Below are positions 759-5,090 of a stretch of 6,068 nt of DNA, piece after piece. The DNA is from Enterobacteria phage WA13: the sequence record NC_007821.1. One strand, written 5' to 3'. Position 1 is the stretch's first letter, and every line of letters starts with the position of its first letter. The position numbers and the translations under genes were made by a program. A model generated the notes under the pieces. That model worked only from the letters and a program-made list of their open reading frames with translations. It did no database searches and was not told the origin of the DNA.

Positions 759-2243
759 ATGGCTTCTGAAATCTTCTCTGATGTTGTTAAGTCTGTTTGG
801 TCGCACGCTACGGCTAAGCACGCTCATCTTCGTATGGCTGTTCAGGTTGATAATCGTAGTCGCCTTCTTTCTGATTTGGTTTACCAGTTGGAAAAGCGCC
901 TTTCCGAAGAGACTCATTTGGATGATGAGACTTATGCCCTTTATGAATCTCAGACTGGCCTTTTGGAAGATCATATGGCACTGGTTCGGAAGTGTGCAGC
1001 CCAACTTGATAATAGTAACACTATAGACCACCGTACCCCTTTGGATGCCGAATGTGTTTTCCTGTTTGAAATGATTTGCCCAGGCGTTCGCTACGGTAAA
1101 ACGTTGAATTCTCTTTGGACTAAGTATGTTGCTCAATGGCCTGAGAAGTTAATTCGTCAAGAGTTAGACATGGTTAAGCCTTTATCCTTTAAGGATGAGG
1201 TTGCTAAGTACATGGAGAAGATGCAGGAAAAAACACGCAAAAATCGCATGACTCAAAAAGTAATTAATGAGATGCGTATTGCTCACCAAAAGGGCTGGTT
1301 TTTCGTATTTGATACGTTGACACTTGCTGATGATCGTTTGCAGGCTTTTAATGAAAACCCCAATGCTCTTCGTGATTATTTCAGGACTGTTGGTCGAGCT
1401 GTTCTGCGCGCTGAAGGTCGTTCGGTTAAGGATTCCTACAACGATTGCTATCGCTATCTTTGTGTGCCGGAGTTTGGAGGTCAGCACGGTCGTCTTCATT
1501 GGCATGTTGTGCATATGGTGCGGACTCTTCCTTTGGGAAGTTACGACCCTAATTTCGGTCGCAAGGTACGTAATTATCGCCAGATTAACTCGTTCCGTGG
1601 CATGTGGCCTTATGGCTTCACGCAACCGATAGCTGTACGCTATCAACATGATGCTTATTCTCGCAAAGGTTGGTTGTGGCCTGTTGACAAATCAGGTAAA
1701 GCAATGCAGAGTAAGCCCTATCAGGCGGTCGCATGGTATGTGACCAAATATGTAGCTAAGCAATCTGACCAGCGTCAGAAAGCTATTACTGAGAGACAAA
1801 AAAAATGCAAGAATCCACTTATGGCAATCTGTCTGAAAAAGGAATTCAGAGTTCGCAGCAGCCGGAAACTCGGAATGGAGTTACCGTCGATGGCGCATCT
1901 CAGCAACAAAGTGCTTCTGGAGCTGAGCCGAATCAGCTTCGATTCCAGCCCTCTGTATCAGATAGTGAAAGAGAACGCCAAAAAGCAATTGACCTTGAAC
2001 ATCGGCGCGCTGCCTTTGCACGTCATTTTGGATGTGCGCCCGGAAGTGAGAAGTATGTTGAAAAATATCCGTCGTTTGATGAAAAAGACACCCGAGTTCA
2101 ATTGGCAGAGTTCTATCGCTTCAATGACGGTCACCTTAAAAAATGGGGATATTTCTGATGAAGCACGTCAATACATTATTGATGCAGGAATTACGCCTTT
2201 TGATTTGCGAGCTAAAGCGACTCAAACTTTCGGCGGTAAGTGA
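759..2243 (+). CDS. A: Replication initiation protein A (rolling-circle HUH endonuclease)
   Basis: 494-aa ORF, ATG 759, TGA 2241-2243, SD GAGGG 745-749. C-terminal two-thirds align by eye with phiX174 protein A (GWFFVFDTLTLADDRL, NPNALRDYFR, CVPEFG, HUH-like GRLHWHVVHM, two-tyrosine motif WYVTKYVAK, C-terminal GITPFDLRAKATQTFGGK). Contains the conserved ori(+) sequence. Confidence 0.92.
   Translation: MASEIFSDVVKSVWSHATAKHAHLRMAVQVDNRSRLLSDLVYQLEKRLSEETHLDDETYALYESQTGLLEDHMALVRKCAAQLDNSNTIDHRTPLDAECVFLFEMICPGVRYGKTLNSLWTKYVAQWPEKLIRQELDMVKPLSFKDEVAKYMEKMQEKTRKNRMTQKVINEMRIAHQKGWFFVFDTLTLADDRLQAFNENPNALRDYFRTVGRAVLRAEGRSVKDSYNDCYRYLCVPEFGGQHGRLHWHVVHMVRTLPLGSYDPNFGRKVRNYRQINSFRGMWPYGFTQPIAVRYQHDAYSRKGWLWPVDKSGKAMQSKPYQAVAWYVTKYVAKQSDQRQKAITERQKKCKNPLMAICLKKEFRVRSSRKLGMELPSMAHLSNKVLLELSRISFDSSPLYQIVKENAKKQLTLNIGALPLHVILDVRPEVRSMLKNIRRLMKKTPEFNWQSSIASMTVTLKNGDISDEARQYIIDAGITPFDLRAKATQTFGGK
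1002..1031 (+). other. Viral (+) strand origin of replication, 30-nt protein A recognition and nicking sequence
   Basis: CAACTTGATAATAGTAACACTATAGACCAC differs at only about 3 positions from the phiX174 origin CAACTTGATATTAATAACACTATAGACCAC as I recall it. The expected nick is between G1008 and A1009. Lies inside gene A, as in phiX174 and G4. Confidence 0.8.
1212..2243 (+). CDS. A*: A* (in-frame internal initiation product of gene A); start uncertain
   Basis: phiX174 makes a 341-aa A* from an internal ATG shortly upstream of the conserved GWF..DTLTLADDRL block. Here the in-frame ATGs are 1212, 1221 and 1248; 1212 has AAGGATGAGG (1191-1200) upstream and gives 343 aa. The start cannot be fixed from sequence alone. 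Confidence 0.3.
   Translation: MEKMQEKTRKNRMTQKVINEMRIAHQKGWFFVFDTLTLADDRLQAFNENPNALRDYFRTVGRAVLRAEGRSVKDSYNDCYRYLCVPEFGGQHGRLHWHVVHMVRTLPLGSYDPNFGRKVRNYRQINSFRGMWPYGFTQPIAVRYQHDAYSRKGWLWPVDKSGKAMQSKPYQAVAWYVTKYVAKQSDQRQKAITERQKKCKNPLMAICLKKEFRVRSSRKLGMELPSMAHLSNKVLLELSRISFDSSPLYQIVKENAKKQLTLNIGALPLHVILDVRPEVRSMLKNIRRLMKKTPEFNWQSSIASMTVTLKNGDISDEARQYIIDAGITPFDLRAKATQTFGGK
1805..2158 (+). CDS. B: Internal scaffolding protein B (in a different frame inside gene A)
   Basis: 117-aa ORF inside A. The C-terminus LAEFYRFNDGHLKKWGYF matches the phiX174 B C-terminus (..AEFYRFHDAEVNTFGYF); the divergent N-terminal half is typical for B. Weak SD GAGAG 1791-1795. Confidence 0.85.
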   Translation: MQESTYGNLSEKGIQSSQQPETRNGVTVDGASQQQSASGAEPNQLRFQPSVSDSERERQKAIDLEHRRAAFARHFGCAPGSEKYVEKYPSFDEKDTRVQLAEFYRFNDGHLKKWGYF

Positions 2244-3088: not shown

Positions 3089-4372
3089 ATGTCAAACGTG
3101 CAAACTTCCGCTGAACGTATTCCTCACGACCTTTCTCATCTGGTTTTTGATGCAGGCAAAATTGGTCGTTTAAAGGTTGTTTCTTGGACTCCTGTTGTTG
3201 CAGGTGATTCTTTTGAGCTTGATATGATTGGCGCTATTCGCCTTTCCCCGCTTCGTCGTGGCCTTGCTGTTGACTCTCGTGTTGACCTGTTCACGTTTTA
3301 TGTCCCTCATCGTCATGTATATGGTGAGCAGTGGATTGATTTTATGAAGCAAGGTGTTGATGCTGCTCCTTTGGCCCCTGTTCAGTGCTCTCGCGGTTGG
3401 GATAGTGCTCAGTATCTTGCTACTATTCCGTCTAGTAACTTAAAGGTTCCTAAGTTTCTTCATCAAGGTTACCTGAACATTTACAATAATTACTTTAAAG
3501 CTCCGTGGATGGATGACCTGACTTATGCCAACCCGTCTAATATGGAGGGTGAAGATGTTCGTTTTGGTGTTCGTGCATGTAACTTGAAAACTATTTGGAC
3601 TGCTCCGCTTCCTCCGGATACTGAAACCTCTCATTCTATGGAGACTGAAACCAACTCCATTGACATTATGGGTTTGCAGGCCGCTTATGCTCAATTACAT
3701 ACTGAGCAGGAGCGTGATTACTTCATGACTCGTTATCGTGATATTGTTAACGAATTTGGAGGTAGTACTTCTTATGATGCGGATAATCGTCCTTTGCTTG
3801 TTATGCATTCTGAGTTCTGGGCCTCAGGCTATGATGTTGACGGCACCGACCAAAGCTCTCTCGGTCAGTTCTCCGGTCGTGTCCAGCAGACGTTTAAGCA
3901 TTCAGTACCGCGATTCTTCTGCCCTGAGCATGGCACTATGTTCACACTCGCATTGGTCCGCTTCCCGCCGACTCATGAAATGGAGATGCATTACTTAGTT
4001 GGTAAAGAAGATTTGACTTATACTGATTTGGCTTGTGACCCTGCTTTGATGGCTAACTTGCCTCCTCGTGAGGTTAATATGTCTCAGTTCTTCCATTCTG
4101 GAAGTGCTAGTGCTAAGTTTAAGATCGCTGAAGGTCAGTGGTATCGCATGCAGCCTGATCGCGTTGCATTGCCGTATAACTATCTTGATGGTTTTCCGTT
4201 CTATAGCGCGATTCCGTCTGATGATATTAAGCAGCGCGTTCTGGTTAATACTGATAACTACGATGAGGTTTTCCAGTCTATGCAGCTTGCGCACTGGAAT
4301 ATGCAGACTAAGTTTAATTGCACCATTTATCGTAATATGCCGACCACTCGCGACTCTATTATGACCTCTTGA
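3089..4372 (+). CDS. F: Major capsid protein F
   Basis: 427-aa ORF. Long stretches match phiX174 F (MSN.QT.AER.PHDLSH, FTFYVPHRHVYGEQWI, GYLNIYNNYFKAPWM, DIMGLQAAYA, LVMHS..WASGYDVDGTDQ.SLGQFSGRVQQT.KHSVPRFF.PEHGTMFTLALVRFPPT, C-terminal PTTRDSIMTS). Confidence 0.95.
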   Translation: MSNVQTSAERIPHDLSHLVFDAGKIGRLKVVSWTPVVAGDSFELDMIGAIRLSPLRRGLAVDSRVDLFTFYVPHRHVYGEQWIDFMKQGVDAAPLAPVQCSRGWDSAQYLATIPSSNLKVPKFLHQGYLNIYNNYFKAPWMDDLTYANPSNMEGEDVRFGVRACNLKTIWTAPLPPDTETSHSMETETNSIDIMGLQAAYAQLHTEQERDYFMTRYRDIVNEFGGSTSYDADNRPLLVMHSEFWASGYDVDGTDQSSLGQFSGRVQQTFKHSVPRFFCPEHGTMFTLALVRFPPTHEMEMHYLVGKEDLTYTDLACDPALMANLPPREVNMSQFFHSGSASAKFKIAEGQWYRMQPDRVALPYNYLDGFPFYSAIPSDDIKQRVLVNTDNYDEVFQSMQLAHWNMQTKFNCTIYRNMPTTRDSIMTS

Positions 4373-4955: not shown

Positions 4956-5090
4956 AAGGCTGCCGCACTCCCGGTTAGATGCCTGCCTAGTGTAGGGCAG
5001 ACCGAGCCGTACGGAGATACCCGATAAACTAGGAACGTGGAAGGCGCAAGCCGCCTTCCCTCCTGCTAAGCCCCAAAAGGAGTTACAGCG
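4956..5090 (+). other. G-H intergenic region with stable hairpins; probable complementary (-) strand origin (DnaG primase-dependent, G4-type)
   Basis: 135-nt non-coding spacer, far longer than J-F or F-G. Contains a perfect 8-bp GC-rich hairpin (ggaaggcg / caagc / cgccttcc, 5039-5059), the palindrome ccgtacgg (5007-5014) and a ctgcc/ggcag stem-loop (4984-5000). From memory, the primase-dependent origin of alpha3/St-1/phiK maps between G and H, whereas G4 has it between F and G. H Shine-Dalgarno AAGGAG at 5077-5082. Confidence 0.4.

Follow-up and report, generated by a model that had tools for sequence, protein, structure and literature searches.

An alpha3-type variant of the phiX174 viral-strand origin within gene A of Enterobacteria phage WA13

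Genome and gene A context

The window analysed here is the whole 6068-nt sequence of WA13, which aligns end to end with coliphage WA45 (6068 nt; Alphatrevirus, Bullavirinae) at 99.3% identity (0.7% difference) and is therefore a complete circular microvirus genome. Identity to NC3, ID32, NC35, ID21, NC28, ID62, NC29, alpha3, phiK and St-1 is 85-94%. Gene A is annotated at 759-2243 in WA45, alpha3 and NC3 and one base earlier, at 758-2242, in St-1; the same open reading frame is present in WA13, where the gene is identical to that of WA45. The encoded protein A matches the Pfam family Phage_GPA (PF05840) with E=2.7e-59 and carries an HUH motif (HWH, residues 247-249) as well as paired tyrosines (YVTKY, residues 327-331), which align with H263/H265 and Y343/Y347 of phiX174 protein A. 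A minus-strand open reading frame (741-1136) overlaps this gene, related records annotate genes on the plus strand only, and sequence variation follows the codons of the plus-strand frame. An in-frame ATG is found at 1272-1274, the position at which the St-1 record starts protein A*; A* is unannotated in WA45, alpha3 and NC3.

Two intergenic regions of the genome deserve brief description. The long H-A intergenic region upstream of gene A (1-758), unannotated in WA45 and alpha3, contains two overlapping plus-strand open reading frames at 65-433 and 138-509, encoding 122 and 123 amino acids. The equivalent of the 122-residue frame is recorded as a hypothetical protein in Lilleven, and record MG945254 marks both frames as 'similar to hypothetical protein'. 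The G-H intergenic region (4956-5090) aligns base for base with the F-G intergenic region of G4, in which the G4 record annotates primer RNA and the origin of complementary-strand synthesis; a three-way alignment of WA13, G4 and alpha3 gives a mean column identity of 88%, and a strong hairpin, GGAAGGCG/CGCCTTCC, is located within the WA13 region. By this resemblance, 4956-5090 is probably the primase-dependent complementary-strand origin, the other origin of the genome.

The features discussed below are as follows.

759-2243, plus strand: gene A, the HUH rolling-circle initiator acting on the origin (annotated in relatives; Pfam match; motifs)
1002-1031, plus strand: 30-nt viral-strand (+) rolling-circle origin of the alpha3 type (phiX174 match; clade-wide identity; invariant run)
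1002-1011, plus strand: recognition/nick box CAACTTGATA (exact decamer; predicted nick between G1008 and A1009)
1012-1019, plus strand: A+T-rich spacer with both differences from phiX174 (boundaries approximate)
1020-1031, plus strand: right-hand box CTATAGACCAC plus the preceding A (same bases in phiX174 and G4)

This three-part layout, with a recognition sequence, an A+T-rich spacer and a binding sequence, follows work of the 1980s by Baas, Jansz, Fluit, van Mansfeld, Brown and Hurwitz, with the 1020-1031 region presumably being needed for the binding of protein A to duplex replicative-form DNA.

A phiX174-like origin in codons 82-91 of gene A

Read directly from the sequence, plus-strand positions 1002-1031 of WA13 are CAACTTGATAATAGTAACACTATAGACCAC. 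A search of both strands with the phiX174 30-mer and a tolerance of 3 mismatches gave this segment as the sole match in WA13, agreeing at 28 of 30 positions, and no match at that threshold occurred in any of 200 dinucleotide-preserving shuffles. The phiX174 record (NC_001422) has CAACTTGATATTAATAACACTATAGACCAC at 4299-4328 and places the 'origin of viral strand synthesis' at 4306. The original prediction, which described 1002-1031 as a phiX174-like origin with a few substitutions, had used its own phiX174 origin sequence for comparison; that sequence matches NC_001422 4299-4328 exactly, and the few substitutions amount to two. The first is T>A at origin position 11 (WA13 1012), equivalent to phiX174 T4309A (I110N), and the second is A>G at origin position 14 (WA13 1015), equivalent to phiX174 A4312G (N111S). 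Alignment with phiX174, G4 and alpha3 places both within the A+T-rich middle of the element, as had been anticipated, with CAACTTGATA on one side and the right box ACTATAGACCAC on the other unchanged and with the length and spacing of the A+T-rich spacer the same as in phiX174. The CAACTTGATA decamer has one exact copy in the 6068 nt of WA13, at 1002-1011, and no second exact copy of the origin was found in the genome.

Within gene A, 243 nt precede the origin, which makes up codons 82-91 of the reading frame (QLDNSNTIDH), homologous to Q107-H116 of phiX174 (QLDINNTIDH), so that every base has two roles. Each substitution affects the second base of a codon and replaces a residue of protein A (Ile>Asn and Asn>Ser). 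The dual constraint proposed for this embedded element is therefore real, and the changes were not free.

Other signals were sought over the same segment. A hairpin or cruciform at the origin was rejected, as the minimum free energy of -4.4 kcal/mol corresponds to z=+0.26, and an equally good or better fold was obtained with 109 of 200 shuffles. A scan for promoters and terminators over the origin gave one weak promoter-like match on the minus strand (998-970), which is within chance expectation. No known RNA family from Rfam was detected anywhere in the 6068-nt genome.

Conservation among alpha3-like phages

The comparison set of alpha3-like phages was gathered independently of the origin, using whole-genome similarity and protein A peptide patterns located outside it. 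All 12 loci recovered through the peptide patterns and all six fetched phage records carry an identical 30-mer. The WA13 30-mer is likewise identical in all 16 distinct alpha3-like gene A sequences, which share 90.6-97.9% pairwise identity; every alpha3-like genome has it exactly, just as the phiX174-like and G4-like genomes have the phiX-type 30-mer exactly. The two substitutions thus mark the clade rather than the WA13 genome, and the altered bases at positions 11 and 14 became fixed long ago in the alpha3 lineage.

This identity stands out against the variation of the surrounding gene. Among the 16 distinct sequences, 302 of the 1485 sites of gene A vary, with none of the 30 origin sites variable compared with 6-11 in the flanking 30-nt blocks. 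The longest invariant run of gene A is 32 nt (1002-1033), and its first base is also that of the origin. None of the 10 third codon positions within the origin varies, compared with 172 of 348 (49%) in gene A outside its overlap with gene B, a freeze with a P of about 0.001 if sites are assumed to be independent. Minority codons are also used in the origin, notably ATA, which accounts for 3 of the 70 isoleucine codons of the WA13 genome. Conservation of the origin acts on the DNA itself, beyond the need to encode protein A. The second-longest invariant run of gene A in alpha3-like phages (30 nt, 1959-1988) lies within the overlap with gene B (1805-2158), where double coding is sufficient to explain it.

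Relative to phiX174 and G4, conservation within gene A peaks in the 10 codons from 1002 onwards (28/30), whereas the rest of the first 146 codons shows 44-46% nucleotide identity to these phages. A blastn comparison of WA13 942-1091 with phiX174 yields an alignment confined to 1000-1033.

Origins in wider protein A homologues

A profile built from eight protein A homologues retrieved 44 IMG/VR loci; 24 were taken forward and 22 distinct 30-mers were tabulated. Six loci (L115, L120, L133, L135, L139 and L140) were left out of the 24-locus table: four of them had a best match that was weak or on the opposite strand, or an open reading frame whose start was not captured, while L120 duplicates the 30-mer of L118 and L140 had a weak plus-strand match. 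For the majority of the diverged loci, the sequence closest to the origin consensus is on the gene strand. Across the 24 loci, the match is found in the same open reading frame and the same x-Leu-Asp phase, 76-131 codons upstream of a VF(D/N)(T/S)LT motif.

The 22 variants differ in a patterned way. Conservation is 86-100% at positions 1 and 3-10 (C-N-ACTTGATA), with the third-codon positions 3, 6 and 9 among them. For the distant candidates this apparent conservation is inflated, as they were picked as best consensus matches; their consistent frame and placement provide independent support. Positions 11-20 are the most variable across lineages, position 30 varies freely, and the second codon positions 2, 11 and 14, at which changes alter the amino acid, also vary. 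The A at position 11 is common, and the G at position 14 occurs only in the alpha3 clade. The right-hand box is kept only in nearer lineages and is replaced in distant protein A homologues.

Loci L117-L141 are uncultured microviruses of 5-6 kb whose protein A homologues are 27-37% identical. These retain an in-frame C-N-ACTTGATA within the N-terminal portion of the coding sequence (for example, L125 2648-2677 and L131 2267-2296), and their right-hand boxes differ from that of WA13, with sequences such as GTTATACACAAC or CTCTATTCCTCAC. The pattern suggests that the nick box may be ancient and that the binding box may co-evolve with the initiator. A pattern with one base more in the spacer than the origin matched an unrelated sequence, AATCAAGCAGATACTTGATAGCTTCTACATCTATAGACTTGCTCATAACGTG, which is nearly exact in about 17 viral contigs of 1-14 kb (IMG/VR L005, L006, L009, L010 and L012, together with about a dozen others).

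Tolerance of the A+T-rich spacer

The original prediction had further proposed that the WA13 origin is a guide to the positions that tolerate change. The substitutions do lie in the spacer; however, the 30-mer is identical in every alpha3-like phage, so WA13 adds no data point on tolerance. Experimental information is provided by saturation mutagenesis of phiX174, which found detrimental synonymous mutations in Q107, L108, D109, I110, N111, N112, T113, I114 and D115 (bioRxiv 10.64898/2026.07.25.740675). Nine of the ten phiX174 origin codons are thus affected, including the spacer codons I110, N111 and N112 (bioRxiv 10.64898/2026.07.25.740675). The spacer is therefore not freely tolerant, tolerance being restricted to particular positions, and phiX174 is sensitive to change at spacer third positions 12, 15 and 18. 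The alpha3 type keeps the phiX174 bases at these three positions (T, T and C). H116 alone is absent from the list of sensitive codons; its third position is origin position 30, and its absence matches the natural free variation at that position. The alpha3 changes themselves are at second codon positions and so beyond the reach of synonymous scans.

The WA13 origin matters little beyond correct annotation, in that it sets the predicted nick at 1008/1009 and represents the standard alpha3-type origin. Better sources on tolerance are the origin mutagenesis reportedly carried out in the 1980s and the phiX174 saturation mutagenesis of 2026. The comparison of uncultured microviruses is a somewhat more useful by-product, with a nick box that is retained while the spacer and right-hand box drift.

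Alternative explanations for the conserved segment

Below, we consider other explanations for the clade-specific bases and for the conservation of the segment as a whole. One is that the spacer substitutions are adaptive, either tuning the melting of the origin or making the alpha3-type protein A favour its own origin, and hence a clade-specific specificity. Both changes are fixed in a clade whose neighbouring synonymous sites turned over extensively, they alter two residues of the initiator itself, and the G at position 14 is unique to the alpha3 clade among the 22 variants. However, a neutral or slightly deleterious ancestral change that was later frozen explains fixation equally well. Strict specificity is also difficult to reconcile with work of the 1980s in which phiX174 protein A reportedly cleaves the replicative forms of alpha3 and St-1 in vitro; classic papers are likewise said to have mapped the cleavage in alpha3 and St-1 replicative-form DNA. 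On balance, we regard an adaptive origin of the two changes as unlikely. A further idea, to which we give less credence, is that co-evolution of the alpha3-type spacer with the Asn-Ser dipeptide fitted origin and initiator to each other in a clade-specific way; it arises because the origin encodes part of its own initiator and the clade changes are at second codon positions. If true, such a match would restrict the cross-replication of alpha3-like with phiX/G4-like phages during mixed infection.

A different explanation dispenses with a DNA element and attributes conservation to protein-level constraint on residues 82-91 (QLDNSNTIDH), the resemblance to phiX174 then being a by-product of a conserved peptide. 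L83, D84, I89 and D90 are indeed invariant in eight diverse protein A homologues. However, a constraint on the peptide leaves several observations unaccounted for. Firstly, third codon positions are frozen within the origin, the invariant run begins at origin base 1, and minority codons such as ATA are kept. Secondly, the wider lineages conserve third positions 3, 6 and 9 while second positions 2, 11 and 14 vary, and the N-terminal protein sequence around the origin is barely alignable. Finally, synonymous mutations in the origin codons are harmful in phiX174 (bioRxiv 10.64898/2026.07.25.740675). Taken as a whole, a purely peptide-level explanation is very improbable. That the 30-mer is a relic and viral-strand synthesis starts elsewhere in WA13 is scarcely credible, since no support for it was found: the 13 sites in WA13 that resemble the decamer within 2 mismatches are not clearly above chance (shuffle mean 6.4, largest 15, at least 13 in 3 of 200), only one decamer is exact, and a relic is not expected to be the most conserved stretch of gene A.

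We therefore favour, with a probability of about 95%, the explanation that WA13, an alpha3-like microvirus of the genus Alphatrevirus with WA45 as its nearest relative, has its viral-strand origin at 1002-1031 and that this origin operates by a phiX174-like mechanism. Nothing in the sequence analysis contradicts a viral-strand origin at this position, and the element is an ordinary one, being a known element in a known variant that about a dozen deposited genomes carry. Sequence identity, location, reading frame, DNA-level purifying selection and the HUH/Tyr initiator come from the analysis of WA13; the nick position and the biochemical steps are carried over from phiX174. A full-text literature search for the 30-mer found no paper.

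Predicted mechanism of initiation

In phiX174, protein A cleaves the viral strand at G4305/A4306, bases 7 and 8 of the 30-nt origin (bioRxiv 10.64898/2026.07.25.740675). The enzyme binds the supercoiled replicative form, uses Tyr343 and Tyr347 together with Mg2+, becomes covalently attached to the DNA and re-ligates it after each round (bioRxiv 10.64898/2026.07.25.740675; PMC5714925). By homology, the nick in WA13 is predicted between G1008 and A1009. Protein A, encoded at 759-2243, would bind the supercoiled replicative form via the right-hand box, upon which the A+T-rich middle would melt. One catalytic tyrosine (Y327 or Y331) would then cut the plus strand at G1008/A1009 (CAACTTG|ATA) and become covalently joined to the 5' end, leaving a 3'-OH that Rep helicase and DNA polymerase III of the host would extend. 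Once a round is complete, the second tyrosine would cut the regenerated origin, and ligation would close the displaced strand into a circle.

Comparison with known origins

Within Alphatrevirus, the origins of alpha3, St-1, phiK, WA45 and others consist of the same 30-mer in the same codons (82-91) and the same frame, with no difference from that of WA13. The experimentally defined prototype is the phiX174 ori(+) at 4299-4328, with which WA13 shares the nick box, the right-hand box and 28 of 30 bases. In both phages, the origin is located in homologous codons of gene A, on the strand that carries the gene, and lacks a hairpin. They differ in that Ile-Asn of phiX174 is replaced by Asn-Ser in WA13, the WA13 spacer is one G:C pair less A+T-rich, and the gene A flanks are 44-46% identical. 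G4 (Gequatrovirus) has the phiX174-type 30-mer exactly (L004 500-529), so that WA13 is also 28/30 identical to G4; the mismatches are again at positions 11 and 14, and the flanking sequences are unrelated.

More broadly, HUH/Tyr initiators nick one strand, become covalently attached to it and prime rolling-circle replication (reviewed in PMC5714925). The nonanucleotide stem-loops of circoviruses and geminiviruses and the double-strand origins of pT181 and pC194 are served by the same HUH/Tyr chemistry as the WA13 type. In the stem-loop origins, the nick site is presented in a hairpin loop, whereas WA13 has no stem-loop and would instead rely on a linear nick box and a separate binding box. The lack of a hairpin at the WA13 origin fits the phiX174 mode, unlike the stem-loop origins of most other HUH initiators.
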